A model generated the notes under the pieces. The model searched no databases. It was not told the origin of the DNA and saw only the letters and a program-made list of their open reading frames with translations. From the sequence record SRR20825006_2049: 43,790 nucleotides of DNA. The stretch is one strand, 5' to 3'. Below, one piece after another: positions 1 through 42,869 of this stretch. The position numbers and the translations under genes were made by a program. Each line of letters begins with the position of its first letter. Position 1 is the first letter of the stretch.

Positions 1-933
1 ATCTTCTAACCATCCTTTGTATCCTTTTTCAACAGTAATAATCGGGATACGGATTGAAGCTCCACGGTCTGAAATTCCGTAAGAGAAATCGTGAATAGAA
101 GCAGTCTCATGCTGACCAGTTAAACGCTGATCGTTAAACTCACCGTATACTGCAATATGTTCAGAAGTTACAGGACGGAAAGCTTCACAGATAGTGTCGT
201 ATACTTCTTTAGAGCCAGCAGTTCTTAAAGTTGTATTTGAGAAGTTAGCGTGCATACCAGAACCGTTCCAGTCACCTTTAATTGGTTTTGGGTGGTACTC
301 AATATAGTAACCATACTCTTCAGTAAGTCTTTGTAATAAGTAACGAGCTACCCAGATTTCATCACCTGCTTTTTTAGCTCCTTTTGCAAAAAGTTGGAAT
401 TCCCACTGACCGCTAGCAACCTCTTGGTTGATACCTTCAAAGTTAAGACCAGCATCAATACATAGATCTGCGTGCTCCTCAACAAAAGCTCTACCGTGTG
501 TGTTTTTACCACCTACAGAGCAATAGTACATACCTTGAGGACCAGGATAACCACCAACAGGGAAACCTAAAGGCAGTTGTGTGTTTTTATCCATAATGAA
601 ATATTCTTGCTCAAAACCGAACCAGAAATCATCATCTTCATCATCGATTGTTGCTCTTGCGTTAGACTCGTGTGGAGTACCATCTGCATTAAGAACCTCA
701 GTCATTACTAAGTATCCATCTCTACGAGCAGGATCTGGATATATTGCAACGGGCTTCAATAAGCAATCAGAAGAGCCTCCTTCGGCTTGTTTTGTTGAAG
801 AACCATCAAAAGACCAAACAGGACAGTCTTCTAACTTCCCGCTAAAATCTTCTTCTACTTTGGTTTTACTTCTAAGATTGGCAGTAGGTGTATAACCGTC
901 CAACCAGAGATACTCTAATTTTGATTTGCCCAT
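1..933 (-). CDS. glnII: Glutamine synthetase type II (beta-grasp + catalytic domain); 3' end runs off the left edge of the window
   Basis: Not in the ORF track. Manual translation from ATG at 933 gives MGKSKLEYLWLDGYTPTANLRSKTK...WSFDGSSTKQAEGGSSDCLLKP...GFEQEYF...GINQEVASGQWEFQ...HPKPIKGDWNGSGMHANFS, which are GSII signature motifs. The frame is open to position 1. Confidence 0.93.
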   Translation of the reverse strand, partial: MGKSKLEYLWLDGYTPTANLRSKTKVEEDFSGKLEDCPVWSFDGSSTKQAEGGSSDCLLKPVAIYPDPARRDGYLVMTEVLNADGTPHESNARATIDDEDDDFWFGFEQEYFIMDKNTQLPLGFPVGGYPGPQGMYYCSVGGKNTHGRAFVEEHADLCIDAGLNFEGINQEVASGQWEFQLFAKGAKKAGDEIWVARYLLQRLTEEYGYYIEYHPKPIKGDWNGSGMHANFSNTTLRTAGSKEVYDTICEAFRPVTSEHIAVYGEFNDQRLTGQHETASIHDFSYGISDRGASIRIPIITVEKGYKGWLED

Positions 934-973
934 AATAAATTGATTTTAAATTTTTTTTGAATTAAACTAGAAA

Positions 974-981
974 CAAATATA
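974..981 (-). promoter_or_regulatory. Bacteroidota primary-sigma -7 element (TATATTTG) for the GSII gene
   Basis: Exact TAnnTTTG match on the minus strand, 40 bp upstream of the start codon. Confidence 0.65.
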
Positions 982-1001
982 ACATTTCTTTAATATCTGC
1001 A

Positions 1002-1071
1002 TCTTTAAAAAATAGGGGGTGATGCTTCTTATTAACGGAATAAATTTAATAAGCCCCCTAAAAAATAGGGG
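1002..1071. promoter_or_regulatory. Two copies of a candidate operator CCCCTA-N5-TAGGGG (perfect at 1055-1071, degenerate at 1002-1018)
   Basis: The 13-bp direct repeat TAAAAAATAGGGG occurs at 1006-1018 and 1059-1071, 53 bp apart. It is GC-rich within an AT-rich spacer and lies between two divergent -7 elements. Confidence 0.55.
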
Positions 1072-1096
1072 TGTATTATGAAATCATATATTTTTG

Positions 1097-1104
1097 TACG
1101 TTTG
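1097..1104 (+). promoter_or_regulatory. -7 element (TACGTTTG) for the GSIII gene
   Basis: Exact TAnnTTTG match 31 bp upstream of ATG 1136. Confidence 0.65.
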
Positions 1105-1135
1105 AATTCTGAATTTCATAAAAATTAGCCTTAAA

Positions 1136-3319
1136 ATGGAGACATTGCGATTTTTTGCCCTAAAAGAAAGCCTAAACAGAAAGCCGGTAACGATCCTAGA
1201 GACACAAAAGCGCTCTGAGTTATTTGGTAAACACGTTTTTGGAAAAGATGCGATGCGTCAAGTTTTATCTCAGGATGCTTTTGAGGCAGTGGAAGACGCC
1301 ATAAACACAGGGGCAAAAATAGATCGTGTAATGGCAGATAGTATTGCGGCCGGGATGAAGCAGTGGGCGTTAGAATTAGGTGCAACCCATTATACGCACT
1401 GGTTTCAGCCTTTAACCGGGGCTACGGCAGAAAAGCATGATGCGTTTTTTGAACAAACTTCAGAAGGTAGGGCTATCGAGAAATTTGAAGGTGCAAAATT
1501 AGTTCAACAAGAACCAGATGCGTCTTCTTTTCCTCACGGTGGAATTAGAAATACTTTTGAAGCGCGCGGGTATACCGCTTGGGATCCTACATCGCCGGCA
1601 TTTATTTTAGATACCACCCTTTGTATTCCTACTGTTTTTGTATCGTATACAGGAGAGGCATTAGATAACAAAACACCTTTGTTAAGAGCCCTCAACTCCA
1701 TTGATCATCACGCCACAGAGGTCGCTAAATATTTTAATAAAAGTGTCACTAAAGTCACGGCTACTTTAGGCTGGGAACAGGAATATTTTTTGATAGATTC
1801 AGCACTGGCAGCTTCTCGCCCCGATATCATGCAAACCGGGAGAGCCTTGCTTGGTCACGCTCCGGCTAAAGGGCAACAATTAGATGACCACTATTTTGGG
1901 TCTATTCCGGTACGTGCACTTAATTTTATGAAAGAACTCGAGCAGCAATGTATGCTTTTAGGAATCCCTGTTAAAACACGGCATAATGAGGTCGCACCAA
2001 ACCAATTTGAGTTGGCTCCAATTTTTGAGGAAGCCAACCTTGCGGTAGATCATAATTCGCTTATAATGGATTTGATGGATCGTGTTGCTAGCCGCCATAA
2101 TTTAAAAGTGCTCTTTCACGAAAAACCGTTCGCCGGAATAAACGGGAGCGGAAAACATAATAACTGGTCTCTGGCAACAGATACCGGAGTCAACTTGTTA
2201 AGTCCAGGTACGACTCCGATGAAAAATTTACAGTTTCTTACCTTTTTTATAAATACTATTAAAGCAGTTCAGGAAAACGAAGCATTGCTTAGAGCGTCTG
2301 TGGCTTCGGCTTCTAATGATCACAGATTGGGTGCCAATGAGGCACCACCCGCGATTATGTCGGTATTCATAGGAAAACAGTTAACCGCTGTTCTTGACGA
2401 ATTAGAAAAAGTAACAGATGGAAAACTCTCTCCACAGGAAAAAACAGATCTAAAGCTCAATGTGGTAGGTAAAATTCCTGAAATTTTGTTGGACAATACA
2501 GATAGGAACAGGACATCACCTTTTGCGTTCACCGGAAACAAATTTGAGTTTAGAGCCGTAGGTTCCACCACAAACTGCGCAAGACCCATGGTTGTTTTAA
2601 ATACGATCGTAGCCAAACAGCTTAAAGATTTTAAAGCAGAAGTAGATAAGCTAATAGATAAGGAGAGCATGAAAAAAGATGATGCGATCTTTAATGTACT
2701 GCGCGAGTATATAAAGTCTTCTAAAAAAATAAGGTTTGAAGGTGATGGCTATAGTGCAGAATGGGAAAAGGAGGCCAAGAAGCGAAAACTGAGTAATAAT
2801 AGAACTACTCCCGAAGCTTTAAAAGTTCAAATAGGAAAGCAAGTTTCAAGCCTATTTGAAGAAATGGAAGTGATGAATAACGTTGAGCTTAAAGCGCGTT
2901 ATGATATTGAATTAGAAGAATACATTAAAAGAATTCAGATTGAAAGTAGAGTTCTAGGCGCCATTGCCGGCAATCATATAATTCCCACAGCGATACGCTA
3001 TCAAAATCTATTGATCAAAAATGTAAATGGCCTAAAGAATATCTACGAAGCCGACTATCAAGAGTTGGCTCAAGAACAACTAGAGCTTATTCAGAAAATA
3101 TCGAAATATATTAGTACGATCAATAAAGAAATAAGTTTTATGATCGAAGCAAGAAAAGAGGCTAATGCACTAGATACTAAAGAAAGAGCAGAGGTATACC
3201 AGACTAAAGTATTACCATTTTTTGACTCTATACGGTATGCTTCAGATAAACTCGAACTTATGGTTGAAGATAAATTATGGCCTTTGGCTAAAAACCGTGA
3301 ACTGCTTAATTTAAATTAA
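1136..3319 (+). CDS. glnA: Glutamine synthetase type III
   Basis: 727 aa with GSIII motifs THWFQPLTG..AEKHD, QEPDASSFP.GG.R.TFEARGYT.WD, GWEQEYFL, HNEVAP.QFE, HEKPF.G.NGSGKH.NWS and DRNRTSPFAFTGNKFEFRA. Confidence 0.96.
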   Translation: METLRFFALKESLNRKPVTILETQKRSELFGKHVFGKDAMRQVLSQDAFEAVEDAINTGAKIDRVMADSIAAGMKQWALELGATHYTHWFQPLTGATAEKHDAFFEQTSEGRAIEKFEGAKLVQQEPDASSFPHGGIRNTFEARGYTAWDPTSPAFILDTTLCIPTVFVSYTGEALDNKTPLLRALNSIDHHATEVAKYFNKSVTKVTATLGWEQEYFLIDSALAASRPDIMQTGRALLGHAPAKGQQLDDHYFGSIPVRALNFMKELEQQCMLLGIPVKTRHNEVAPNQFELAPIFEEANLAVDHNSLIMDLMDRVASRHNLKVLFHEKPFAGINGSGKHNNWSLATDTGVNLLSPGTTPMKNLQFLTFFINTIKAVQENEALLRASVASASNDHRLGANEAPPAIMSVFIGKQLTAVLDELEKVTDGKLSPQEKTDLKLNVVGKIPEILLDNTDRNRTSPFAFTGNKFEFRAVGSTTNCARPMVVLNTIVAKQLKDFKAEVDKLIDKESMKKDDAIFNVLREYIKSSKKIRFEGDGYSAEWEKEAKKRKLSNNRTTPEALKVQIGKQVSSLFEEMEVMNNVELKARYDIELEEYIKRIQIESRVLGAIAGNHIIPTAIRYQNLLIKNVNGLKNIYEADYQELAQEQLELIQKISKYISTINKEISFMIEARKEANALDTKERAEVYQTKVLPFFDSIRYASDKLELMVEDKLWPLAKNRELLNLN

Positions 3320-3566
3320 GTTGGTGCCAAATTTTTGGTGTATTAGGAGCCTCAGCACTATTAATACTATGTAAATTAATTGTGAATTTCTTACTTTTTT
3401 AGTAGGTTAAATCCTACAAAATATTTTAGGGTAACATAAAGGGTGTTTTTCCCTTCTCGTATTTTAGAGTAGGCAGGCTCTACGATTTTTATTTACAACG
3501 TTTTCGTTATGCGTGAATTTCATCGAAAAGTTACAATCTTCTTAAAATCTGAGCTTTAGATTTTTA

Positions 3567-3574
3567 TAAATTAG
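3567..3574 (+). promoter_or_regulatory. Candidate -7 element (TAAATTAG, one mismatch) for the curli operon
   Basis: Near match to TAnnTTTG. The implied transcription start near 3581 coincides with the first base of a leader hairpin. Confidence 0.4.
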
Positions 3575-3581
3575 CATCGCA

Positions 3582-3665
3582 TTGAGGCTGAAAGAAGTAC
3601 TTTAGTCTCAACTTCCCCTCAAAATCTCTTTTGGCTAGAGCCCCCTCTCTTTTAGGGTCAAAAGA
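3582..3665 (+). promoter_or_regulatory. Structured 5' leader of csgA: two hairpins with C-rich single-stranded tracts
   Basis: TTGAGGCTGAAAG (3582-3594) pairs with CTTTAGTCTCAA (3600-3611). TCTTTTGGC (3627-3635) pairs with GTCAAAAGA (3657-3665) and encloses CCCCCTCT. The G-U wobbles work only on the + strand. Confidence 0.5.
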
Positions 3666-3721
3666 TTGAAATAGTATTTTATTAACCATTCTATATATTA
3701 TTAATTTAAAACTTTTCAATC

Positions 3722-5245
3722 ATGAAAAAAGTTATGTTAAGCGCAGCAGCGCTAATGTTTGGGGCAGTAGCATTTGCACAAACCAGCACTCAGGCTTCAG
3801 AAGCCGATCTAAGTGATACGCCAATTATAGGGGGTATCATTGATTACTCAAATATTACCACAGCAGATAAGCTTCCAGCAGCGGCAGCTACAGCAAACCG
3901 TGGGTATACTGAGCAAAATGCAACAATGCCAGGGGCTATGAATGATATTAAGGCCCGTCAAGAAGGTGAGAAAAACTCAATTGTAGGGTATCAAACCGGT
4001 GCGGGCAATAAGGTATCTATGTCTCAGATGGGCGATGTAAATGGTAATGCGGCTGATAGTGGCGAATCTAATCTTATTTATTCTACACAAATAGGTCAGA
4101 ACAATGATGGGCGACTTGAGCAACAAGGTGATTTTAATGAGGTTATCTTAGATCAGAATAACGATAATCCTTTTGCGGCCGGGGGTACCGTAGGTAATAA
4201 AGCGGATATTCAGCAGGGAACAGCTAATCAAGCAGAGAAAAATTATGCAGCCGTTCAACAATACGGAGATGATAACTCCACTAAAATCTTACAAACTTAT
4301 GACAATAGTGATGCTCTAGTAATACAAGGAGGTGTTGGTAATATGGTTGAGATCAATCAATATGCTGACCCGGAAAATAGTAAAGGTCACGAGGCACTAG
4401 TTGAACAGTATGGTGATGATAATCAGGCGTTGATCAATCAAAACGCTGATGGAATGAAAGGTCGTAATTACGCTAGAGTTTTCTCTTATGGTAATAATAA
4501 CAAATCAGAGCAAACTCAAACTACTGATAGTGATACCAAAGGAAACGTAGCTTTAGTGAACCAAGGTGTTGATACCGGAAGTTCAGCCGCTCTTTTTAAT
4601 ACTGCAGAATACGCTGTAGTAACATCAGTTGGTGAAGTTATGAACGGTACTCCTAATACACAATCAGATTATAGTGAAGCTATTCAAACCCAGTCTGGTC
4701 ACGATAACGTAGCGGAGTCTCATCAATTTGGTGCAGGTACTAGCACTACTAATGGAGATTATTCTAATCAAACTCAAGATGGTAAAGGTAATGAAGCTTA
4801 TGCGTTTCAAAATGCTTACGGAAGCGCTAGTGGTCGAGGTAATTCTTTACAATCAACACAAACTGGTGACGACAACTACGTAGCTACAGGACAAAATGGT
4901 AGAAATCAAGATGCTACTATTTCTCAAACAGGAGATGATAACTATGCAGTTGCTACACAAAGAGGACGTGGTCATGTGGTAGATATTATGCAAAATGGAG
5001 ATATGAACGCTGCTGAAACTGCTCAGTACGGGGTTGGAAACTCAATTGTTATAAGCCAAGACGGTGGACACAGTTGGAAGGCAGAGCAAGATGTACCAGG
5101 AGCTGCACCTAATGGAGGGAATTCTCTAGATGTTATTCAAGTTGGTCCTAGTACTATTCTTAACAGCGGACTTCAGACTCCTGCGGCTGTTACTAGAGTA
5201 GGTCTTACTGCACCTGCAATGGCTCGTGCATCGGGTTCACTTTAA
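3722..5245 (+). CDS. csgA: Major curlin subunit (CsgA-like), about 15 curlin repeats
   Basis: Sec signal peptide ending AFA|Q. About 30 N/S-x5-Q strands form curlin repeats, for example NSLQSTQTGDDNYVATGQ and QDATISQTGDDNYAVATQ. The protein is Gln/Asn/Gly-rich and lies upstream of csgEFG homologues. Confidence 0.88.
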   Translation: MKKVMLSAAALMFGAVAFAQTSTQASEADLSDTPIIGGIIDYSNITTADKLPAAAATANRGYTEQNATMPGAMNDIKARQEGEKNSIVGYQTGAGNKVSMSQMGDVNGNAADSGESNLIYSTQIGQNNDGRLEQQGDFNEVILDQNNDNPFAAGGTVGNKADIQQGTANQAEKNYAAVQQYGDDNSTKILQTYDNSDALVIQGGVGNMVEINQYADPENSKGHEALVEQYGDDNQALINQNADGMKGRNYARVFSYGNNNKSEQTQTTDSDTKGNVALVNQGVDTGSSAALFNTAEYAVVTSVGEVMNGTPNTQSDYSEAIQTQSGHDNVAESHQFGAGTSTTNGDYSNQTQDGKGNEAYAFQNAYGSASGRGNSLQSTQTGDDNYVATGQNGRNQDATISQTGDDNYAVATQRGRGHVVDIMQNGDMNAAETAQYGVGNSIVISQDGGHSWKAEQDVPGAAPNGGNSLDVIQVGPSTILNSGLQTPAAVTRVGLTAPAMARASGSL

Positions 5246-5298
5246 GATTATGAGTATTCGTAGGATATTAAAAACCGCGTAATACAATGCTTGTAAAG

Positions 5299-5334
5299 GT
5301 GGGCATACTTCTAAAAAGTATGTCCACTCTTTAT
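5299..5334 (+). terminator. Intra-operon hairpin after csgA (leaky terminator or mRNA stabiliser)
   Basis: GTGGGCATACTT-CTAAA-AAGTATGTCCAC forms a 12-bp stem with one G-U pair, followed by a weak U tract (TCTTTAT). Confidence 0.6.
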
Positions 5335-5354
5335 AAATTAAAAAAAGACGCTTT

Positions 5355-5897
5355 ATGAAACCAAAATTCTTTTTTACGGCAATATTGATTCTTCTTATGA
5401 CAACTGCATATGCTCAAACGTATAAAAATGAAACTAATAGTGATGATCAAAAACAATTAGTAGAAAAAGAACTGGTGTCTGCTCAAATATTAACCAATTT
5501 AGGTGTTGGAACTGCTCAAAACGATCGCAATGCAACTCTTAGAGGCAATAGTGTAGTGTTGAGTCAGATTGGCGATTACAATACAGCCGCGATAAATGTA
5601 GTTGCTCAGGCCAGTGAAATCAACATAAATCAAGTAGGAGATCAAAACTATGTAGGCTTAGATTATAAGGTTAAAACAGCTATTTCAGAAATTCTTCAAG
5701 AAGGTAATCGAAATACGGTTTATGACATTGTTAATAATCGTGATGCAGATATTTCGCTAGATATACAACAACAAGGAAATGATTTAAACTTTCAAAGACT
5801 CGGAGTAAATAAACTCACCGAGTCCTTACAATTTAAGCAAACTGAAGCATCACCGGTATTGATTATACGTAGTGATTCTTTTGGGTTTGTAAACTAG
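5355..5897 (+). CDS. csgB: Minor curlin / nucleator (CsgB-like)
   Basis: Signal peptide ending AYA|Q. About 4 degenerate curlin repeats (QIGDYN, QVGDQN, QEGNRN, QQGNDL). Located between csgA and csgE. Confidence 0.72.
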   Translation: MKPKFFFTAILILLMTTAYAQTYKNETNSDDQKQLVEKELVSAQILTNLGVGTAQNDRNATLRGNSVVLSQIGDYNTAAINVVAQASEININQVGDQNYVGLDYKVKTAISEILQEGNRNTVYDIVNNRDADISLDIQQQGNDLNFQRLGVNKLTESLQFKQTEASPVLIIRSDSFGFVN

Positions 5898-5902
5898 AAA
5901 AT

Positions 5903-6697
5903 GTGCTAATTAAACCTATTGTAAAATTGAAAATTATAAGTGTTTATAGTGTTCTTCTTTTTTTTTCATTGGTTAAAACACACGCGCAATTCTATAATAA
6001 AGAGGTCGCAGCGTCTATAAGAATAGAGCGAAATAGTGAGTTTTTAAAGTTTTTTGCATTGGCAGAAAATAAATCTCCTGTAGACCGTACCCTAGAATAT
6101 GATTTTTTAATTTTTAAAACTCAAGCTGACGGCACAGTTTCAAAAGATAATGATAAACAAAGGTTCGTATTAAGTGCGTACGAAAAAAAGGAGCTTCAAA
6201 ACTTAGTTTTATCTAATGCCGTCACTAACAAAACAATTATCGTTTTATTAATCTATGATCAAGACGGTAAACCTATAGGTAAAGATAGGATCGAGTTAGA
6301 ACAAGGTAGTCTATCGAATTTAGACAATTTAAAGGGAAATCTCATCGCCATTTCTTCAGATCAAATAGATCAAGCTGCTCCACAAGATGGTTTTAAACTA
6401 CAAGGTCTGGTAATACAAAAGTCAATCACAAAAGCGGGCAGAGATTTTTACAAATACTTTTATTCCCTTTTCTACAATAAAGATATAAAGTCTTCCAAGA
6501 ATATTAGAATTCTTGAGGTTCCGGGTAGATCAAGAACTACTCGCATCTCGGTTAAAATAGATGATTTTGTCGTTTGGCAATTTTTTGCCCAACCTCAGCG
6601 CAAATATCTTGAACAGCACGCAAGCATCGCAATTAGTAAGGTTGTAGAGCGATTGCAGATTTTAGAACAACAGAAGGATAAGTTTATACACTATTAA
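5903..6697 (+). CDS. csgE: CsgE-family curli assembly protein with an extra N-terminal CsgH-like beta-sandwich domain
   Basis: The C-terminal GLVIQKSITKAGRDFYKYF...IRILEVP...ISVKIDDFVVWQFFAQP aligns by eye with E. coli CsgE GLLTDHTVSSIGHDFYRAF...LTINERP...ITITVNQDVIFQTFLFP. An extra domain of about 110 aa follows the signal peptide. The GTG start is uncertain. Confidence 0.8.
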   Translation: MLIKPIVKLKIISVYSVLLFFSLVKTHAQFYNKEVAASIRIERNSEFLKFFALAENKSPVDRTLEYDFLIFKTQADGTVSKDNDKQRFVLSAYEKKELQNLVLSNAVTNKTIIVLLIYDQDGKPIGKDRIELEQGSLSNLDNLKGNLIAISSDQIDQAAPQDGFKLQGLVIQKSITKAGRDFYKYFYSLFYNKDIKSSKNIRILEVPGRSRTTRISVKIDDFVVWQFFAQPQRKYLEQHASIAISKVVERLQILEQQKDKFIHY

Positions 6698-6698
6698 T

Positions 6699-7109
6699 AT
6701 GAAAACAATTACTTTTTTAATTCTATTATTTGGAGGAATAACCTTCATGCACGCCCAGCAATTTACTTACAAACCGCTTAACCCGGCTTTTGGAGGGGAC
6801 ACCTTTAATTACAATTGGTTATTGAGTTCGGCTACTGTACAAAATGGTTTAAAAGAAGGTTTGAGTGCTGAAGATCAAAAGTCAGAATTAGAACAATTTG
6901 GTGATAATTTGAATAAACAAGTTTTAAGTCAGATTTCAAGAACACTACTTCAGCAACAAATAGAAGGAATTGGTGATTTTACCGAAGAAGGCACATTTAC
7001 CTATGGAACGCTGGCCGTTGAAGTTTTTGAGAGTGAAGAAGGGTTAGTGATCAATATTCTAGACACTTCTACAGGTGAGCAAACTCAAGTTATAGTCCCA
7101 AATCAATAA
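6699..7109 (+). CDS. csgF: Curli assembly protein CsgF
   Basis: The mature N-terminus QQFTYKPLNPAFGGDTFNYNWLLSSATVQN matches the CsgF pattern NPxFGGxxxNxxxLLxSAxxQN. Confidence 0.93.
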   Translation: MKTITFLILLFGGITFMHAQQFTYKPLNPAFGGDTFNYNWLLSSATVQNGLKEGLSAEDQKSELEQFGDNLNKQVLSQISRTLLQQQIEGIGDFTEEGTFTYGTLAVEVFESEEGLVINILDTSTGEQTQVIVPNQ

Positions 7110-7115
7110 ATCAAG

Positions 7116-8552
7116 ATGAAATTTTACAAAGTCATTACAGCGGTATTTTTAATTACCGCTTTAAATTCTTGCGGAACTTATTTCAACCAACCTTTTGACC
7201 AAACCCCGGCACGTTTAGGGGAATACTCTAAGTCTACTCAAAACCTATTAAACTTACCACCGGCCCAAGCTCCTGTGGAAGTGGCAGTTTATAATTTTTC
7301 AGATCAAACAGGGCAATACAAAGCGGTTGAGAATGGTAGTACATTTAGTACTGCGGTAACTCAAGGCTCTACGGCAATCTTACTAAAGGCACTTGAAGAT
7401 AGTGGTTGGTTTATTCCTATAGAGCGAGAAAACCTAAGTAACCTTTCAACAGAGCGCAATATCATTAGAAACACAAAGCAAGAGTATATAAAAAACTTAA
7501 ACCCCAATGAGCCACCGCTTCCACCACTTAAATATGCCGGTATTTTATTAGAGGGTGGCATTGTGTCGTATGATACTAATATAATTACCGGAGGTGTTGG
7601 TGCGCGTTATTTTGGACTTGGAGGTTCGGCAAAGTATAGGCAAGACCGTATCACGGTCTATTTAAGAATGGTCTCTACCAGTAATGGTGAAATATTAAAA
7701 ACGGTTTATGTTTCTAAAACCATCTTGTCACAAGCGCTAGATGCTAGTTTGTTTCGCTTTGTAAAGTTTCAACGCTTATTAGAAACTGAGATGGGAATCA
7801 CTCGCAATGAACCCGTTCAACTTGCAGTAAAAGACGCTGTTGAGAAAGCTGTTCATGATTTAATTATAGAAGGAATAGCAGATGGATATTGGTCTGCCAA
7901 AGGCGGAAATGCTGTTAATGAAGAATTAGTAACCGCCTACAATGCAGACAAAGAAGTTGCCGAAAGTACTGGATTGTATAATCGTATATTTTTTAAGCAG
8001 CAGTATACTAATGCCTTGAACTTCTCTTTAGGTACTACGATGCTTGATGCAGATTATAGTGCTAAGCGTTTTGGGGCTATGATTAAGGCAGGATATACAA
8101 AAGCATTGAGTCAAAGTTTCAGTCTAAATTTTAATGCAGCGTATTTAAATTTTAAAACGGGAGATACCTATGATCAAAATTTTGCAAGCGTTGATTTGAA
8201 TGCCGAATTCAAACTTTTAAAAAATGATAAGTTATCTCCTTATTTATTTGCCGGAGGTGGAGTTCTATTGGGCTTTTCTGAAAATGAAGAATCATTAGGT
8301 CTAGATGCTGGTCAAACCGATGCAAAAGTTCAATATGGTGCAGGTCTTGAGTATGCTCTATCTTCTAAAATTGGGCTCAAATTATGGGCAGAACATAATG
8401 TTACTTTCACCGATAAGGTAGATAACCTTATAAATGGTAAAAGAGATGATCATTACTTGAATTTGGGTGTTGGATTAAAATACTACTTCGATTTTGCTAA
8501 AAAGGCAACAATTCAAACTTCAACTGATGCAACTAACCCTGTTAATAATTAG
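7116..8552 (+). CDS. csgG: Curli secretion channel lipoprotein CsgG fused to a C-terminal outer-membrane beta-barrel domain
   Basis: Lipobox LNSC. CsgG motifs VAVYNFSDQTGQYK, FSTAVTQG, ALEDSGWF.PIER.NL.NL..ER.IIR and GG.GARYFG.G are present. Residues from about 299 onward show amphipathic beta-strands ending LGVGLKYYF. Confidence 0.93.
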   Translation: MKFYKVITAVFLITALNSCGTYFNQPFDQTPARLGEYSKSTQNLLNLPPAQAPVEVAVYNFSDQTGQYKAVENGSTFSTAVTQGSTAILLKALEDSGWFIPIERENLSNLSTERNIIRNTKQEYIKNLNPNEPPLPPLKYAGILLEGGIVSYDTNIITGGVGARYFGLGGSAKYRQDRITVYLRMVSTSNGEILKTVYVSKTILSQALDASLFRFVKFQRLLETEMGITRNEPVQLAVKDAVEKAVHDLIIEGIADGYWSAKGGNAVNEELVTAYNADKEVAESTGLYNRIFFKQQYTNALNFSLGTTMLDADYSAKRFGAMIKAGYTKALSQSFSLNFNAAYLNFKTGDTYDQNFASVDLNAEFKLLKNDKLSPYLFAGGGVLLGFSENEESLGLDAGQTDAKVQYGAGLEYALSSKIGLKLWAEHNVTFTDKVDNLINGKRDDHYLNLGVGLKYYFDFAKKATIQTSTDATNPVNN

Positions 8553-8556
8553 AACA

Positions 8557-10083
8557 ATGAAAATTAATTGTATTTACTTTTTAATTCTAACAGTAGGTCT
8601 AATGCTTTCTTGTAGCGAAGATACTATTGAAGAAAATGGTATAGGTTCGCTTGACGGCACTGTGGTTGATGCTGTTTCAAAAACGCCCTTAGCTAATGTG
8701 AAAATAGTTACGAATCCTTCATCAAGCACAGTGTTTACAGATGGTGATGGTAATTTTGTGATTGAAGCAGTAAAAACAGGAGAGTATTCTGTTCAAGCAG
8801 AGTTAGAAGGCTATACAGATGCTTTTGAAGCGGTGACCATTTTAAGTGAACAACGCAGCAGTGTAAGTTTTGAATTGGTTGTAGGTGGAGATGAAAACAG
8901 AGCTCCTAAAGTTCCCGAGTTACTTTCACCAGAAAATGGAGCTTCTGACTTAGAGGCAAAGGTCGAATTTGTTTGGTCATCATCTGCTAATGATACTGAT
9001 GAAATTGTGTATACCTTACAACTTAGAAATGGAACTACAAATGAAATCCAGAATATAGAAGTTGTTGCTGATACTATGGCAACCGTAGAAAAGTTAAGGT
9101 ATGGAAGCAATTATTTTTGGCAAGTAACTGCATCTGATGGAGAAAATGAACCTGTACAAAGCGTTTTAGGACAATTTAGTACAACTACAACGCCTGAAAA
9201 TGATTTTCTATATGTAAGATCTATTAATGGGAATAGCGTGATTTTTTCAGGAGGTAACGATGAAGATGCTGATGATGAAAATACCGGAGAGATTAATTTT
9301 AATGAGTTTCAACTTACCTCAGAGACCTATAATAGCTTTAAGCCGCGACGTAATGTAGAAACCTCCAAAATCGCGTTTTTAAGAACTGTCGATGGAGCAA
9401 CACAACTGCACACCATGAATTTAGATGGTTCAGACATAAAGCAGGTGACTAATGCTATTCCTTTAAATGGATTTCGAGTAAGTGAACTCAATTATACTTG
9501 GGCACAAAACGGTGGGAAACTCTACTATCCTAGCTTTGACAAGCTTTATAGTATTAATCCTGACGGTGGTGGTCTTTCCTTAATCTACCAAACTCCTGAC
9601 GGAAGTTTTATTTCAGAAGTGAGTGCGGCTGCATTTGACGACAATTTAATCGCCTTGAAGACCAATGATAGCAACGGCTATAACGTAAGTGTATATACGG
9701 TGCGTTTATCATCAGGAACAATAGAGCAAATGGTTTACCAAAACACTCCGGGTGCTGTAATAGGTATTGACTTAGACGCAAACGGAAGCAGGCTTGTCTA
9801 TGCCAAGGATACTTCTGGCTCAGAAAACACGCAATATCGTCAATTTTCTAGCAGGATCTACATATATAACCTCAATACAAATTCTGAAGCGATTTTAAAT
9901 AATGGAGTAACCGAAGGATTGAATGATCTGCAACCTAGTTGGTCGCCTTCGGAGGGAGAAATCATTTTTACTAGAAAACCGAGTAATCTAAATTCAGAAC
10001 CTGAGATTTACATTTCATCTCTAAATAATTTCTCAAATGACGACCTTCTCTTCACTAACGCATCAATGCCAGATTGGGAATAG
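8557..10083 (+). CDS. Curli-operon lipoprotein: carboxypeptidase-regulatory-like domain + Fn3-like domain + TolB/PD40-like beta-propeller
   Basis: The likely start is ATG 8557, 4 bp after the csgG stop, rather than TTG 8494. Lipobox MLSC is followed by acidic SEDTIEE. Domain motifs are G.V.D..SKTPLANV...TD.DGNF, P.LLSPENGA...YFWQV.ASDG and PSWSPSEGEIIF. Confidence 0.75.
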   Translation: MKINCIYFLILTVGLMLSCSEDTIEENGIGSLDGTVVDAVSKTPLANVKIVTNPSSSTVFTDGDGNFVIEAVKTGEYSVQAELEGYTDAFEAVTILSEQRSSVSFELVVGGDENRAPKVPELLSPENGASDLEAKVEFVWSSSANDTDEIVYTLQLRNGTTNEIQNIEVVADTMATVEKLRYGSNYFWQVTASDGENEPVQSVLGQFSTTTTPENDFLYVRSINGNSVIFSGGNDEDADDENTGEINFNEFQLTSETYNSFKPRRNVETSKIAFLRTVDGATQLHTMNLDGSDIKQVTNAIPLNGFRVSELNYTWAQNGGKLYYPSFDKLYSINPDGGGLSLIYQTPDGSFISEVSAAAFDDNLIALKTNDSNGYNVSVYTVRLSSGTIEQMVYQNTPGAVIGIDLDANGSRLVYAKDTSGSENTQYRQFSSRIYIYNLNTNSEAILNNGVTEGLNDLQPSWSPSEGEIIFTRKPSNLNSEPEIYISSLNNFSNDDLLFTNASMPDWE

Positions 10084-10100
10084 TAGTAAAAAGCTTTTTT

Positions 10101-10136
10101 TAAAAACGTCCTGAAATATCAGGACGTTTTTATTTC
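10101..10136 (+). terminator. Intrinsic terminator ending the curli operon
   Basis: Perfect inverted repeat TAAAAACGTCCTGA-AATA-TCAGGACGTTTTTA with a U tract. Confidence 0.85.
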
Positions 10137-10137
10137 T

Positions 10138-10145
10138 TACTTTTG
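10138..10145 (+). promoter_or_regulatory. -7 element (TACTTTTG) for purM
   Basis: Exact TAnnTTTG match 17 bp upstream of the ATG. Confidence 0.65.
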
Positions 10146-10162
10146 CCAAATAATTAACAATC

Positions 10163-11341
10163 ATGAGTCAAGAGATTTCTAAACGCTACGCTCAGCGTGG
10201 TGTTTCCGCCGGAAAGGAAGAAGTGCATAAAGCCATTAAAAATGTCGATAAAGGATTATTTCCTAAAGCATTTTGCAAAATAGTCCCTGATTATCTGACC
10301 GGTAGTGAAGAGCATTGTTTAATTATGCACGCTGATGGTGCCGGGACCAAATCTTCGCTCGCTTATATGTATTGGAAGGAAACCGGCGATCTTTCCGTTT
10401 GGAAAGGCATTGCTCAGGATGCGTTAATTATGAATATCGACGATCTTCTGTGCGTGGGCGCTACCGATAATATTTTGCTTTCGTCAACGATTGGTCGAAA
10501 CAAAAACCTGATCACCGGCGAAGTCATTTCTGCAATTATAAATGGTACCGAAGAATTGATAGCTGACCTTGAAAAACACGATGTTTCTATCAAAAGTACC
10601 GGTGGGGAAACCGCAGATGTTGGTGATCTCGTGCGCACTATAATCGTAGATTCTACGGTGACGGCGAGAATGAAGAAAGAAGATGTTATTGATAATGCAA
10701 ATATTAAACAGGGTGACGTTATCGTAGGTCTGGCTAGTTTTGGTCAATCTACTTATGAAACCGAGTACAATGGCGGTATGGGAAGTAATGGTCTTACTTC
10801 TGCACGTCACGATGTTTTTGACAACTATTTAGCCGAAAAATTCCCTGAGAGTTTTGATAAAGCTGTACCGGAAGATTTGGTATATAGTGGCTCAAAGAAG
10901 CTTACAGATTCCGTTGAAGCGAGTCCGTTGGACGCCGGAAAATTAATGTTATCTCCAACACGAACTTATGCGCCTGTGATCAAAAAGATTTTAGCTTCCG
11001 TAGATAAAAGTTTACTACACGGGATGGTGCATTGCAGTGGTGGAGCGCAGACTAAAATTTTACATTTTGTTGAAAATCTGCACATTATTAAAGACAATCT
11101 ATTTGAGGTTCCGCCACTATTCAAACTTATTCAAGAAGAAAGCGGTACTGATTGGAAAGAGATGTATCAGGTTTTCAATATGGGACATAGAATGGAATTG
11201 TATGTAGATCCAAGTCTGGCTCAGGATATTATTGAGATCTCTAAATCTTTCAATATAGATGCTCAGATCGTTGGGCGCGTTGAGGCTTCAAATGAGAAGT
11301 CACTAACAATTAAATCGCCCTTTGGTACGTTTGAATATTAA
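10163..11341 (+). CDS. purM: Phosphoribosylformylglycinamidine cyclo-ligase (AIR synthase), Bacteroidota type
   Basis: Motifs RY..RGVSA.KEEVH, HADGAGTKS, MNIDDLLCVGA, GGETAD, G.GSNGLTSARH, HCSGG and FNMGHRME. Confidence 0.92.
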   Translation: MSQEISKRYAQRGVSAGKEEVHKAIKNVDKGLFPKAFCKIVPDYLTGSEEHCLIMHADGAGTKSSLAYMYWKETGDLSVWKGIAQDALIMNIDDLLCVGATDNILLSSTIGRNKNLITGEVISAIINGTEELIADLEKHDVSIKSTGGETADVGDLVRTIIVDSTVTARMKKEDVIDNANIKQGDVIVGLASFGQSTYETEYNGGMGSNGLTSARHDVFDNYLAEKFPESFDKAVPEDLVYSGSKKLTDSVEASPLDAGKLMLSPTRTYAPVIKKILASVDKSLLHGMVHCSGGAQTKILHFVENLHIIKDNLFEVPPLFKLIQEESGTDWKEMYQVFNMGHRMELYVDPSLAQDIIEISKSFNIDAQIVGRVEASNEKSLTIKSPFGTFEY

Positions 11342-11366
11342 TAAGTAATCTGTAAAATCAAATGAT

Positions 11367-12365
11367 TTGAAAAGACTTGTATACTTCACTCTATGCTGCG
11401 TCATCCTTTTGACAGGTAAAACTGTTCATGCGCAGCACGTCGCTTTTCCGCTTCCTATTAAAAAGAATTTAGTAAAACGATTAACTGAACAATTAGCTCC
11501 AAAACCGGAGACCAATTGGCAAGAATTGAATCGTGTGGGAATTGATTTAAGTGAAGTTGCTTTTGTGAATTGGAATGCCGGTGGTAGTAATTCCATTTCA
11601 GGTCTTGCTGAAGTGGTTCTAGAACGTAATTATTCTGATAAAAAGCGCAAATGGCGTAATAAACTTATTACGCGCTATGGTGTAAACAGTCAGGAAGGGC
11701 AGGAGTTACGCAAAACGGATGATAATTTAGAGCTTACCTCAGATTTTGGATACCGTCGCGATACCTTATCTAACTGGTACTATTCAGCTAAATTTAGATT
11801 TGCTTCTCAATTTACAAACGGATATAAATATCCTGATACCAGCACGCCAATTTCTCAGTTCATGGCTCCGGGCTACATCTTTTTAGGGGTAGGTGGTGAG
11901 TATGGGCAACGTTTGGATAATTTATCTATATACGCTTCTCCATTAACCTATAAATCAACTTTTGTACTTGATCAGGACCTGGCTAACAATGGTGCTTTTG
12001 GTGTTGAACCCGCGGTGCGCGATGCTGATGGAAATATTATTAGGGAAGGCTCAAACGTCAATAGCGAATTGGGGATTTTGATACAAAGTTCTTTAAATGC
12101 TCAAGTAATGGAGAATATAAACCTGACCAATCTGGTCAATCTTTATACTGATTATCTAAAAAGCTTCGGGAATGTTGATATAGACTGGGAACTCAACTTG
12201 AATTTTAAAGTGAATAGTTTTGTGCTGGCTAAAGTGGGATCACATTTAAAATACGATAATGACGTAAAAATTACCGAAACCAACGTTGATGGTGAAGAAG
12301 TGGTAATGGGAGCCAGAACTCAGTGGAAACAACAACTGGGGATTGGCGTTGTTGTAGATTTTTAA
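11367..12365 (+). CDS. DUF3078 family outer-membrane beta-barrel protein
   Basis: Signal peptide, the motifs NWNAGG.NSIS, RKTDD, QF..GY.YP...S.FMAPGY and FGNVDIDWE, and a C-terminal Phe. TTG start. Confidence 0.8.
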   Translation: MKRLVYFTLCCVILLTGKTVHAQHVAFPLPIKKNLVKRLTEQLAPKPETNWQELNRVGIDLSEVAFVNWNAGGSNSISGLAEVVLERNYSDKKRKWRNKLITRYGVNSQEGQELRKTDDNLELTSDFGYRRDTLSNWYYSAKFRFASQFTNGYKYPDTSTPISQFMAPGYIFLGVGGEYGQRLDNLSIYASPLTYKSTFVLDQDLANNGAFGVEPAVRDADGNIIREGSNVNSELGILIQSSLNAQVMENINLTNLVNLYTDYLKSFGNVDIDWELNLNFKVNSFVLAKVGSHLKYDNDVKITETNVDGEEVVMGARTQWKQQLGIGVVVDF

Positions 12366-12448
12366 TCCTTATGGTATTTCTAAAACCAATTGGTTAACTT
12401 TTACGTAATTATTAGACAACCCCTAATAGTGTTTAATGGTATAAAACT

Positions 12449-13189
12449 ATGACCCCAAAGTATTTATTGAATGATAAAGGCAAGTACTTATCTTTTATAG
12501 GTTTGCTTATTGTCATTAACCTCACCGTTATTGCCTTGACCGATCTCGAAACAAGCAGGTTGATACGCCTTATAAGTATCGGTATTTTTTTTGCGTATTA
12601 TCTGATCAAGAAAGAACTCCTAAACCTTTGGACGGTTATTGCGTTCTTATTTTTTATAGGAAGAGATATATTTTTTCAATTTTATGAAGAACCTTGGGGG
12701 TACAAATCCTACCTGATCCTCGGTACATTATGTTATTTGACCATAGTTTTTGAACGGCTTCCTAAAATTTCAGAGATAAATTTTAAACCCGGCGTAGTAC
12801 TCATTACGCTTATCTTAGTTGCTGCAAATACCTATACGCTTTATGTGATTATGAATATGAGTATGGTAACCTATACCTTTCACGACGGTGTAGAGCCTAT
12901 ACTTCTCTATGTTTACGGGGCAGCTATGATGGTTTTAGGTGTTCAGGCGATTGCTTACAATAACAAGTACAACAGCAACCGGTCGTTGTTGTATATCTTT
13001 TTTGCTTTTGGTTTTATATTCTCAGATATAGCCGCTTTATTTGCATATTATTTTGAATTTGAGATTTTCTATTTCTTTGATCGATTTTTCTTTTTAGGAG
13101 CGATGGCTATGTTGGTGCAGTACGGTCTTAATTATGAGAGTGTAAAAGAAGAATTCTATCAGTATGAGATGATTGATAAAAATCTTTAA
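12449..13189 (+). CDS. Polytopic membrane protein, possibly a distant YhhN/TMEM86-like protein
   Basis: About 7-8 hydrophobic segments, with intramembrane Asp in GRDIFF and FSDIAA reminiscent of the YhhN GD/SD motifs. The ORF is solid; the family call is weak. Confidence 0.55.
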   Translation: MTPKYLLNDKGKYLSFIGLLIVINLTVIALTDLETSRLIRLISIGIFFAYYLIKKELLNLWTVIAFLFFIGRDIFFQFYEEPWGYKSYLILGTLCYLTIVFERLPKISEINFKPGVVLITLILVAANTYTLYVIMNMSMVTYTFHDGVEPILLYVYGAAMMVLGVQAIAYNNKYNSNRSLLYIFFAFGFIFSDIAALFAYYFEFEIFYFFDRFFFLGAMAMLVQYGLNYESVKEEFYQYEMIDKNL

Positions 13190-13253
13190 GACTAAAGCGT
13201 TTCTTAGCGCCGCCAAAGGTAATGCCCGAGGTAGTTTAATTTAATTCATTTTT

Positions 13254-13781
13254 ATGGCTAAAATTTTAGGTATTGGATCACGCGTTAAACACGCTGAATA
13301 TGGTGTTGGCGTTGTGACTAATGTAACTTCAGAACTTTACTGGATCACTTTTATTGACAACGGTCTTGAAACGGTCACTATTGATACCGAAATGGAAATC
13401 ATTGAGGCGGTTGATGATGAGGTAGATACAGTAAGTTTTTATGAGGTCGAAAAGACGTTGCGCAACCTACTGAAGCAGTATTCAGATATTTCTGAGATCG
13501 TACCTATAGCTGATAAATATAAAGGCGGCACCCTCACGTTAAGTCCGGCAGATGCAGGTCTGGCAAGTAAAGATATTCCTATTGAAACCTTCTTTCACAA
13601 GATCGTAATGGTGCGTGATCGCATTCGAGTGATGGAACAGAAGATCAACAGCAGTAAAAATCTTGACGATCAAGAGAAAATAGATCTTCAGCAATATATA
13701 ACCCGTATTTACGGTAGTTTGACAACCTTTAATGTACTGTTTAAAAACAGTTCGCAAAACTTTAAAGGCTCTAGTAAATAA
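13254..13781 (+). CDS. Hypothetical protein with an N-terminal SH3/Tudor-like domain and a helical C-terminus
   Basis: 175-aa ORF followed by a terminator. GSRVKHAEYGVGVV resembles the G.RV.H..FG.G.V Tudor-like motif. Confidence 0.7.
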   Translation: MAKILGIGSRVKHAEYGVGVVTNVTSELYWITFIDNGLETVTIDTEMEIIEAVDDEVDTVSFYEVEKTLRNLLKQYSDISEIVPIADKYKGGTLTLSPADAGLASKDIPIETFFHKIVMVRDRIRVMEQKINSSKNLDDQEKIDLQQYITRIYGSLTTFNVLFKNSSQNFKGSSK

Positions 13782-13813
13782 GGCCAGTAGCATTTAAAGC
13801 AATTTATTAAAAC

Positions 13814-13844
13814 AAAACCCTGAATATTTACATTCAGGGTTTTT
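13814..13844. terminator. Bidirectional intrinsic terminator between convergent genes
   Basis: AAAACCCTGAAT-ATTTAC-ATTCAGGGTTTT(T) with A/T tracts on both sides. Confidence 0.85.
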
Positions 13845-13874
13845 GGTTCTAGTTTCTATAGGCGAAGCCTAGGC

Positions 13875-14195
13875 TTATCCCTTTTGTAGCTCAAAAACTT
13901 CATTTAATGGGGTTTCTACAGGAGAATGGTCTGCGTTGGTTTCCATAATGTCAGCCATATAGGCCCACCATTTCTTAACAATAGGATCCTGCGGAAGCGC
14001 CGCAGTGGTATGCCCTTCTTTAAGTTGTTGAAATGCAAAAAGCTGCAGGCTAGATTCATCTAGAAAAATATGATAGGTTTCAATCCCGGAATCGTTTAGA
14101 AGTTTTTGCAGTTCCGGCCAGATCAAATCGTGACGGCGTTTATATTCTTTCTCAAAACCGGGTTTGAGTTGCATGGTAAAAGCGTGAACAGGCAT
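13875..14195 (-). CDS. rhaM: L-rhamnose mutarotase
   Basis: Motifs AF.M.LKPG...EY.RRH..IWPEL and KWWAYMADIMETN.D.SP...PL.EVF. Confidence 0.93.
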   Translation of the reverse strand: MPVHAFTMQLKPGFEKEYKRRHDLIWPELQKLLNDSGIETYHIFLDESSLQLFAFQQLKEGHTTAALPQDPIVKKWWAYMADIMETNADHSPVETPLNEVFELQKG

Positions 14196-14199
14196 AGTA

Positions 14200-35346: not shown

Positions 35347-36180
35347 ATGACAAAATCAGAATTTAGATACGCACATCATCCTGAGGATGTAAAAAGATAT
35401 ACTACTAAAGAACTTAGAGAGCACTTTTTAATTCCGGAGTTGTTCGTTAAAAATGAGATCAATCTTACCTATACAATGTATGACAGGTATATCGCCGGAG
35501 GTGCATTTCCTGTTGATCAAGCGGTAAAACTTGAGCCTATAGATGATCTAAAAGCTGAGCATTTTCTTGATCGTCGCGAATTAGGAGTTATCAATGTAGG
35601 AGGAAAAGGTAAAATCACCGTTGATGGTGAGGTTTATGAATTGGGTAATAAGGAAGCACTTTACGTAGGTAAAGGTGTGAAAGAGGTTGTATTTGAAGCT
35701 ACTGAGGAGCAGCCGTATTTTTATATCAATTCGGCACCTGCACATCACGCGTATCCCACAAAAAAGGTAACTAAAAAAGAAGCCGAAATTGTAGAACTGG
35801 GTGATACAAAATATTCTAACAAACGTGTGATCAATAAATTATTGGTTAACAGTGTGGTTGATACGTGTCAACTTCAAATGGGGATGACAGAGCTGCAAGA
35901 AGGTAATGTTTGGAACACCATGCCGGCGCATACACATACCCGAAGAATGGAAGTATACTTCTATTTTGATCTTGAAGAAGGGCAAACCATAAGTCACTTT
36001 ATGGGACAGCCAGACGAGACCCGTCACGTATTTATGAAAAATCACCAGGCGATCATTTCACCAGAGTGGTCTATTCATTCCGGGGCAGGTACCTCAAACT
36101 ATACGTTTATTTGGGGAATGGCCGGTGAGAATATGGATTACGGCGATATGGATGGCGTTTCACCAGAAGATTTAAAATAA
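35347..36180 (+). CDS. kduI: 5-dehydro-4-deoxy-D-glucuronate isomerase
   Basis: Motifs LR..FLI..LF, FL.RRELG.IN.GG.G, WNTMPAHTH.RRMEVYFYF and SP.WSIHSG.GT.NY.FIWGM.GEN. Confidence 0.96.
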   Translation: MTKSEFRYAHHPEDVKRYTTKELREHFLIPELFVKNEINLTYTMYDRYIAGGAFPVDQAVKLEPIDDLKAEHFLDRRELGVINVGGKGKITVDGEVYELGNKEALYVGKGVKEVVFEATEEQPYFYINSAPAHHAYPTKKVTKKEAEIVELGDTKYSNKRVINKLLVNSVVDTCQLQMGMTELQEGNVWNTMPAHTHTRRMEVYFYFDLEEGQTISHFMGQPDETRHVFMKNHQAIISPEWSIHSGAGTSNYTFIWGMAGENMDYGDMDGVSPEDLK

Positions 36181-36181
36181 G

Positions 36182-36943: not shown

Positions 36944-36967
36944 ATCTCATCATAAAAATTTAAGATC

Positions 36968-38392: not shown

Positions 38393-38397
38393 ACCTA

Positions 38398-39411: not shown

Positions 39412-39422
39412 AACAATAATAA

Positions 39423-41083: not shown

Positions 41084-41086
41084 AGT

Positions 41087-42840: not shown

Positions 42841-42869
42841 TTAATTAACGCATCAACCAGATAAACCCT

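Follow-up and report, generated by a model that had tools for sequence, protein, structure and literature searches.

Curli biogenesis is understood almost entirely from E. coli, and the question raised by the locus described here is whether a flavobacterium may build such fibres with a machinery that carries additional parts. The window, a stretch of 43,790 nucleotides from sequence record SRR20825006_2049, contains six open reading frames (ORFs) at positions 3722-10083, all on the + strand, which the ORF list and the reading of the sequence place between the gene for a type III glutamine synthetase (GSIII) and purM. We regard them as very probably a functional-amyloid operon of the curli type (type VIII secretion) from a marine, Leeuwenhoekiella-like flavobacterium, with the layout that is usual in the Flavobacteriaceae. 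In this operon CsgE is joined to a domain that we assign to the CsgC/CsgH superfamily, CsgG carries a C-terminal domain of an outer-membrane barrel family, and a sixth gene encodes a predicted surface-exposed lipoprotein.

Components of the operon and their conservation

The features by which a csg system can be recognized are found together at this site: a curlin-repeat subunit, a CsgG lipoprotein, and CsgE and CsgF encoded adjoining CsgG. An initial annotation of this DNA had announced all the core curli parts, two domain fusions and an extra gene, and each of these was recovered: hidden Markov model searches with Pfam find Curlin_rpt, CsgE, CsgF and CsgG, CsgE comes with a CsgC/H-like domain and CsgG with an OMP_b-brl domain, and gene 6 encodes a further lipoprotein. 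Sec signal peptides are present on all six products, those of genes 5 and 6 being of the lipoprotein type. In gene 6 the longest ORF runs from 8494, and the ATG at 8557 was taken as the start, giving a lipoprotein signal peptide that ends at Cys19. The gene 1 product, which is cysteine-free, matches Curlin_rpt in four stretches (79.6 bits, cut-off 20.7) and shows about 15 Q-x-G-x-x-N strand motifs within residues 80-450. Export of this protein by the type IX secretion system (T9SS) was considered and rejected, since no T9SS-family model matched in the NCBIfam scan (E<=0.1).

The secretion components are recognizable in both genes 4 and 5. The product of gene 4 scores 109.9 bits with Pfam CsgF and is 26% identical to E. 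coli CsgF over 133 residues (the E. coli K-12 proteins used for comparison were fetched by accession). It keeps the N-terminal N-P-x-F-G-G segment, which in E. coli plugs the CsgG channel. Gene 5 matches CsgG with 217 bits over residues 50-261, and its identity of 43% to E. coli CsgG extends over 278 residues, that is, the whole of the E. coli protein. Beyond this point the chain continues into an OMP_b-brl domain, which reaches 34.2 bits in the scan of the full protein (residues 303-458) and 39.3 bits, against a cut-off of 28.7, when residues 285-478 are scanned alone. The barrel is weakly PorG-like (26.7 bits, cut-off 130), and no PDB structure was matched by its sequence. All the best 120 homologues of gene 5 span 442-502 residues. 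The lipobox Cys19 of gene 5 is followed by G-T-Y-F, without a surface-export signal. A reading of gene 5 as the holdfast protein HfaB was discarded, because the score for that family is 47.5 bits, where the cut-off is 300, and the score for CsgG is 225 bits. With the NCBIfam models the scores fall far under the equivalog cut-offs (CsgA, 61.4 against 160; CsgE, 37 against 137; CsgF, 36 against 171; CsgG, 225 against 505), and the Csg proteins of the window are distant homologues of the enterobacterial proteins and not equivalogs.

The conservation of this arrangement was surveyed in 80 loci (L numbers below), obtained in one scan of species-representative genomes with an alignment of 42 gene 3 homologues (alignment A1) and all belonging to Flavobacteriaceae by record title, with Dokdonia, Aequorivita, Lacinutrix, Leeuwenhoekiella, Mesonia, Marixanthomonas, Salinimicrobium and Salegentibacter among the genera. 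By tblastn, genes 2-5 are present in 80/80 loci and genes 1 and 6 in 78/80; as single ORFs, CsgC-like plus CsgE is found in 80/80, CsgG plus barrel in 78/80 and both halves of gene 6 in 77/80. The complete arrangement, with large curlin, small curlin, CsgC/E, CsgF, CsgG::barrel and gene 6 in this order, is seen in 70 of the 80 loci, in agreement with the flavobacterial subtype that the initial annotation had proposed. Eight of the loci that miss it lie on short or cut contigs (L003, L037, L038, L042, L045, L048, L062, L068), L040 is an artefact of the ORF filter whose two dropped genes were recovered by tblastn, and in L032 the sole curlin of the major type has only 250 residues. A curlin of less than 230 residues was called in 79/80 loci and lies immediately 5' of the CsgE gene in all 70 with the full order. 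The median intergenic gaps over the loci are 4, 2, 9 and 16 nucleotides, and a hairpin with a T-rich tail follows gene 6 in 66/76. The mean identity to the window falls from 78% in the CsgG domain through 66% (CsgF), 55% (CsgE domain), 48-50% (gene 6), 46% (CsgC-like domain), 44% (gene 2) and only 40% (the barrel of CsgG) to 36% in gene 1. On the flanks, purM lies 3' of the operon in 69/80 loci and GSIII 5' of it in 52/80.

The large curlins vary between loci in number and in their C-terminal ends. Copies of at least 380 residues number one in 47 loci, two in 13, three in 8 and four in 6, and tandem large curlins of about 480-500 residues, two to four or more in number, lie 5' of the small curlin in L006, L010, L012, L017, L022, L028, L052, L054, L066 and others, at a place where the window has a single one. 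A cysteine-bearing tail (C ... C-P-G-C) occurs in many loci, including L004, L019, L027, L030, L031, L034, L054, L066 and L076; the large curlins of the Dokdonia type end in S-F-T-L-A-P-I-N, and those of the window type, as in L001 and L002, in R-x-G-S-G-L.

Several points weigh against our reading of the locus. The operon is known here from its genes alone. Gene 2 reaches 18.9 bits with Curlin_rpt, under the cut-off of 20.7, and its size and position are what point to the nucleator role that we infer for it. The strand count of the gene 5 barrel is an expectation taken from the level of the family. All 80 loci come from a single family of bacteria, and the count of 80/80 for the CsgC-like::CsgE fusion is biased by selection, because the loci were fetched with a long-CsgE query. 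Conservation of the neighbouring genes is weak evidence of function, since the chromosomal site is itself conserved. Finally, the motif searches of the leader found no promoter for the operon: TAnnTTTG, the Bacteroidetes -7 box, was not found on the + strand of the leader (3320-3721) and is not enriched over the whole window (49 found, 49.1 expected), and sigma-70-like sites are not above shuffled sequences (21 against 23.4). A search of the leader against Rfam at E<=1 matched no family.

The domain preceding CsgE

In gene 3 the Pfam CsgE match (58.1 bits) covers only residues 166-257, and the structure of CsgE in the PDB (2na4) is matched by this part with E = 0.02. The protein has 124 homologues, mostly of 245-270 residues. 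An AlphaFold model built from alignment A1 (predicted local distance difference test, pLDDT, 88.3) shows a seven-strand sandwich at residues 35-132, a low-confidence linker at 149-161 and an alpha/beta CsgE domain at 170-260. When the N-terminal domain was compared with the PDB by Foldseek, CsgC (2xsk) was found at rank 31, with a target template-modelling (TM) score of 0.76 and a root-mean-square deviation of 3.2 over 95 columns, and CsgH (2n59) at rank 14, with a target TM of 0.65.

The sandwich could also be a generic immunoglobulin (Ig)-like spacer or oligomerisation domain instead of an anti-amyloid chaperone homologous to CsgC/CsgH, an explanation that we consider unlikely and that nevertheless has a number of observations in its favour. 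The best Foldseek matches are generic Ig-like domains, of GH2 enzymes and transglutaminases (best E = 1.6e-5), and such domains score at least as well as CsgC and CsgH on this sandwich. A profile search of the PDB with 37 orthologous N-terminal domains (alignment A2) retrieved neither CsgC nor CsgH, and the window's own domain gave no Tafi-CsgC or CsgH match at E<=10. Among the 37 members of A2, Pfam found DUF1425 in 12, Tafi-CsgC in 2 and CsgH in 1, all under the cut-offs, and the hhalign comparison of the A2 alignment with E. coli CsgC reached a probability of only 11.7%. Residues 29-140 are also devoid of cysteine, and thus contain neither a CxC motif nor a distant pair.

Against the generic explanation stand, in the first place, the relatives of the domain. 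The A2 profile retrieved 330 of them at E<=0.001 from 1.84 billion representative proteins, and those listed include many CsgE fusions of 240-270 residues and some stand-alone proteins of 125-165. In a Pfam scan that took in 34 of the 150 relatives listed, P0500 (140 residues) clears the Tafi-CsgC cut-off with 29.1 bits against 25, P0364 (395 residues) contains two CsgC-like domains plus CsgE and reaches 38 bits for Tafi-CsgC, and P0475 scores 20.7 bits with Tafi-CsgC and 18.9 bits with CsgH. In hhalign, 19 of the stand-alone proteins, aligned as A3, match E. coli CsgC with a probability of 86.6% (E = 4.4e-6, 42 columns). The superposition on CsgC at a TM of 0.76 is of full length, the domain is always joined to CsgE in a csgC-less curli operon, and the CsgC model of Dueholm et al. 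2012 (PMC3521004) matched a flavobacterial CsgE. Among the Atlas matches (score 0.81), which we take as no more than leads, are clusters from Bacteroidota that bear the names CsgH and CsgC.

From the similarity of the modelled fold together with the transitive profile matches, we conclude that the N-terminal domain of gene 3 is a probable member of the CsgC/CsgH superfamily. Taylor et al. 2016 (PMC4838910) define CsgC by a CxC motif and CsgH by distant cysteines; being cysteine-free, the gene 3 domain is neither CsgC nor CsgH in this strict sense. The initial annotation had written the gene as csg[H]E. The extra domain itself stands, at the level of the superfamily, and the specific assignment to CsgH does not, since matches to Tafi-CsgC outnumber those to CsgH among the relatives and cysteine is missing from the domain.

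Apparent exchange of the operon, the sixth gene and the surroundings

The corresponding site in L. palythoae DSM 19859 (L072) differs from the window in the operon and hardly at all around it. The flanking proteins are nearly the same (GSIII 99.9%, purM 98.5% and a DUF3078 protein 99.4% identical), and DNA identity is 95.3% over window positions 1-3781, with the leader at 95%, and 95.6% over 9934-14750. Between these stretches, the proteins of genes 1-6 are 29, 36, 40, 70, 63 and 51% identical, respectively, and only 6747-7925 of the operon DNA can be aligned, at 73%. The divergent block, window 3782-9933 and L072 6208-11945, thus has one breakpoint just behind the csgA signal peptide and the other about 50 codons short of the end of gene 6. 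The possibility that L072 represents a second, paralogous locus was ruled out, as the flanks mark the same chromosomal site, and the difference looks like the replacement of a cassette by homologous recombination.

The window operon is itself, as its sequence relationships indicate, a mosaic of genes 1-3 (3722-6697) and genes 4-6 (6699-10083). Genes 1-3 are closest to Dokdonia sp. Asnod3-C12 (L001) and L002, with identities of 56, 49-56 and 63-66%, and genes 4-6 to Leeuwenhoekiella/Flavimarina loci, with 79-82, 78-83 and 66-74%. FastTree trees, which are fast trees with local Shimodaira-Hasegawa-like (SH-like) support only, disagree between the two parts: gene 3 of the window groups with L001 and L002 (support 99), and gene 5 joins a group made up of one Flavimarina and three Leeuwenhoekiella loci (support 100). 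The exchange of the cassette between close relatives suggests diversifying selection on the fibres.

The product of gene 6 starts, after signal peptide cleavage, with Cys19-S-E-D-T-I-E-E. In Bacteroidetes, the minimal export signal of surface lipoproteins consists of two acidic residues, at about +2 to +4, after a polar or positively charged residue that adjoins the cysteine, and the consensus in F. johnsoniae is S-D-D-F-E, as reported by Lauber et al. 2016 (PMC5080379). A signal of this type fits gene 6 (C-S-E-D-T) and not CsgG (C-G-T-Y-F), and, among the N-termini of 78 orthologues, nearly all show a cysteine followed by S/N/T-E-D/E-T/Q. Since its start fits the Bacteroidota export signal, the gene 6 product is predicted to be a lipoprotein exposed on the cell surface. 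Pfam detects CarboxypepD_reg domains and weak Fn3 signals, and the AlphaFold model, based on 41 sequences (alignment A4; pLDDT 86.1), consists of a CarboxypepD_reg sandwich, an Fn3-like sandwich and then a propeller, whose best Foldseek match is TolB (4r40_C, E = 5.5e-15, target TM 0.55). With 34.1 bits against the cut-off of 343 for NCBIfam TolB (TIGR02800), and with a different N-terminal half, the protein is not an orthologue of TolB. It has 826 homologues, of which the best, 99% identical, is named as a Leeuwenhoekiella palythoae protein.

Whether gene 6 belongs to the curli system at all has to be weighed against an explanation that we hold to be quite improbable, namely that genes 1-5 encode curli and gene 6 an unrelated envelope lipoprotein, TolB- or peptidase-like, which merely shares their transcript or their position. 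The neighbourhood is syntenic throughout the family, as the purM and GSIII counts attest, so that adjacency proves little, and the family searches give the protein no name other than those of its domains. On the other side, gene 6 lies 4 nucleotides behind csgG and a terminator is found only behind it, as are terminator-like sites in 66/76 loci; it is present in 78/80 loci; and its body has diverged from L072 as the csg genes have (51%), with purM at 98.5% and the breakpoint near 9934 inside its 3' end. This last point is the best argument for placing gene 6 in the curli system, because a breakpoint inside the gene implies a history that it has in common with the csg genes rather than with purM. 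A complex prediction for gene 5 residues 285-478 with mature gene 6, run without alignments, gave a score of 0.01 and a mark of 0.34, and is evidence neither way. The C-terminal tails of the large curlins, aligned in search of a common binding motif for a TolB-like propeller, are lineage-specific and gave no usable one.

The coordinates of the operon and of its signals are collected in Table 1. The arrangement had been described initially as one co-oriented unit closed by a strong terminator, with gaps of 1-6 bp from csgB onward. The measured gaps are 109 nucleotides behind gene 1 and then 5, 1, 6 and 4, and the terminator folds at -19 kcal/mol (z = -6.8), with none of 200 shuffles as good. 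The single-unit description needs to be qualified, since a very strong hairpin sits in the 109-nucleotide gap and the transcript may be attenuated or in two parts. In this hairpin some 20 base pairs form the stem (-24.3 kcal/mol, z = -9.1, 0/200 shuffles), with an A-rich tract behind it, and hairpins of -15 kcal/mol or lower, of differing sequence, occur in 73/74 loci with a gap of 20-600 nucleotides, a count of raw folding energies that carries no cross-locus shuffled control. It is possibly an attenuator or a stabiliser of the mRNA 3' end, which may raise the ratio of subunits to machinery. The 27 other ORFs of the window include no CsgD-like or LuxR-type regulator and no stand-alone csgC-like protein, as the claimed lack of csgC and csgD in the window would have it.

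Table 1. Positions of the curli operon, its domains, signals and immediate neighbours in the window
Feature	Coordinates	Strand	Remarks
Type III glutamine synthetase (GSIII)	1136-3319	+	5' neighbour of curli leader
Non-coding leader	3320..3721	+	402 nt, no ORF; 5' of gene 1
Gene 1, major curlin (CsgA-like)	3722..5245	+	507 aa, signal peptide, no Cys
Hairpin in csgA-csgB gap	5291..5337	+	strong fold, no U-run after stem
Gene 2, small curlin (CsgB-like by size and position)	5355..5897	+	180 aa, signal peptide
Gene 3, CsgC/H-like::CsgE fusion	5903..6697	+	264 aa, GTG start, signal peptide
Predicted CsgC/CsgH-superfamily beta-sandwich of gene 3	5987..6322	+	residues 29-140, cysteine-free
CsgE domain of gene 3	6398..6673	+	residues 166-257, Pfam CsgE
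Gene 4, CsgF	6699..7109	+	136 aa, signal peptide, Pfam CsgF
Gene 5, CsgG::outer-membrane barrel fusion lipoprotein	7116..8552	+	478 aa, Cys19
OMP_b-brl domain of gene 5, C-terminal	8022..8489	+	residues 303-458
Gene 6, lipoprotein	8557..10083	+	508 aa, Cys19
Intrinsic terminator	10101..10132	+	14-pair stem, then T-run
purM	10163-11341		3' neighbour of curli unit

A TAnnTTTG motif lies at 10138-10145, between the curli terminator and purM, with none in the csgA leader. Elsewhere in the window, a glutamine synthetase of the Gln-synt_N/C type (1-933, - strand) is divergent from the type III enzyme (1136-3319, + strand) that lies 5' of the curli leader. The polysaccharide utilisation locus at 14200-35186 comprises two SusC/SusD pairs among which three fasciclin-domain proteins are interspersed, together with a sulfatase, GH88, two DUF4861 proteins and a rhamnose mutarotase. 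A uronate catabolism cluster at 35347-43790 encodes KduI, a short-chain dehydrogenase, UxaC, a PfkB-family kinase, KDPG aldolase, a TRAP transporter (DctPQM) and an enzyme of the mannitol-dehydrogenase family.

Proposed assembly and comparison with known systems

These observations allow us to propose how the parts might work together. CsgG would form an oligomeric channel in the outer membrane, capped on its periplasmic side by CsgE, and the CsgC/H-like anti-amyloid sandwich borne by each CsgE would keep unfolded curlins soluble and pass them directly to the channel; since every CsgE would bring its own sandwich, a separate csgC may be unnecessary. At the channel exit CsgF would retain the small curlin, which would nucleate the polymerisation of the large curlin with its 15 or so repeats, the hairpin behind csgA helping to keep the ratio of subunits to machinery high. 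One barrel for each CsgG protomer would surround the channel with a ring of classical barrels, serving as a membrane anchor or as a docking site. The gene 6 protein would be flipped to the cell surface by means of its Cys-S-E-D signal and work with the channel module, its TolB-like propeller perhaps holding or organising the fibres.

A more far-reaching reading, which we offer tentatively and consider rather unlikely, is that the operon encodes an amyloid-export super-complex not described before, with a barrel-ringed CsgG, a chaperone-bearing CsgE cap and a propeller lipoprotein, along with a surface cassette that is exchangeable and under diversifying selection; it is an equally speculative part of this reading that the half encoding subunits and chaperone recombines apart from the channel half. 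Such a pattern would point to diversifying selection on the fibre, in which phages, grazers or kin recognition might be at work. The parts are also of interest one by one. The CsgC-like::CsgE fusion would be a natural experiment on the coupling of chaperoning to delivery at the channel, and the surface lipoprotein would be a partner with no counterpart in E. coli. The CsgG channel is said to have been reported by Dunstan in 2015 as independent of the β-barrel assembly machinery (BAM), and a CsgG with a classical barrel attached is relevant to the anchoring of such a channel. Marine Flavobacteriaceae are major colonisers of particles and algal surfaces, and an abundant amyloid adhesin system would for this reason matter for their attachment.

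It is highly unlikely that the operon instead uses its CsgG-family pore to secrete a repeat adhesin or S-layer-like protein that is not an amyloid, with no strict curli fibres. In favour of this are that no amyloid test in Flavobacteriaceae was found in the literature searched, that gene 1 is far under the NCBIfam CsgA cut-off (61 against 160) and that pores of the CsgG family include non-curli paralogues (Dueholm et al. 2012, PMC3521004). Against it stand the four Curlin_rpt stretches at 79.6 bits, the roughly 15 Q-x-G-x-x-N motifs, and the presence of both CsgE and CsgF, which the same paper calls highly curli-specific.

As for a curli operon, then, several elements have precedents in print. 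Dueholm et al. 2012 (PMC3521004) described Bacteroidetes curli systems without csgC and csgD; their Table S1 includes F. johnsoniae and Flavobacteriaceae bacterium 3519-10, and for the latter it gives one accession under both CsgC and CsgE, while the word 'fusion' is absent from their main text. A 2025 review (PMC12822426) recognizes, in its classification, a 'CsgA/B+CsgEFG' class and considers curli operons widespread in Bacteroidota, and Taylor et al. 2016 (PMC4838910) place CsgH-like sub-families in Bacteroidetes. In the available portions of the 2012 paper and the 2025 review, the fusions and the sixth gene are not mentioned, the doubly listed accession being their only trace. Van Gerven et al. 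2018 (PMC6173799) merely list the phylum in the relevant part of their text, and neither 'bacteroid' nor 'flavobacter' occurs in Sleutel et al. 2023 (PMC10192328). In the full-text literature, outside subscription journals and figures, no paper was found on the fusion of CsgG to a barrel, on the sixth gene or on curli experiments in flavobacteria. The suggestion that the added modules were not mechanistically characterised agrees with this search for the barrel and for gene 6, and needs correction in that curli without csgC and csgD (2012) and CsgH-like proteins (2016) were already published.

Compared with these systems, the window locus is of the same kind as the Bacteroidetes systems of Dueholm et al. 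and the 'CsgA/B+CsgEFG' class, being without csgC and csgD. It shares with the enterobacterial system (E. coli K-12 csgBAC/csgDEFG) the curlin-repeat subunits, CsgE, CsgF and the CsgG lipoprotein. Instead of the two divergent operons of E. coli it has one co-oriented operon that lacks both csgD and a separate csgC; its CsgE bears a CsgC/H-like domain, its CsgG a barrel, and a sixth gene encodes a lipoprotein. The major subunit has about 15 repeats, against 5 in E. coli, the number given in the 2025 review (PMC12822426). The gene 3 domain resembles CsgC and CsgH (2xsk, 2n59) in its modelled seven-strand beta-sandwich of the same size and in its curli-operon context, and differs from them in being fused to CsgE and cysteine-free, with its own sequence under every Pfam cut-off. 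Above the Pfam cut-off, the C-terminal domain of gene 5 is akin to the OMP_b-brl barrels, PorG-like in Bacteroidota, from which it is set apart by its covalent junction to a CsgG protomer. Gene 6 has a beta-propeller whose best structural match is TolB of the Tol-Pal system, and, unlike TolB, it is a lipoprotein with an export-like signal and two beta-sandwiches in place of the TolB N-terminal domain. The core of the operon is known, as are curli in the phylum (since 2012) and CsgH-like proteins there (since 2016). The functions given above for the added parts are proposals; what is new is the family-wide occurrence of the fusions, the additional predicted surface lipoprotein and the exchange of the cassette.

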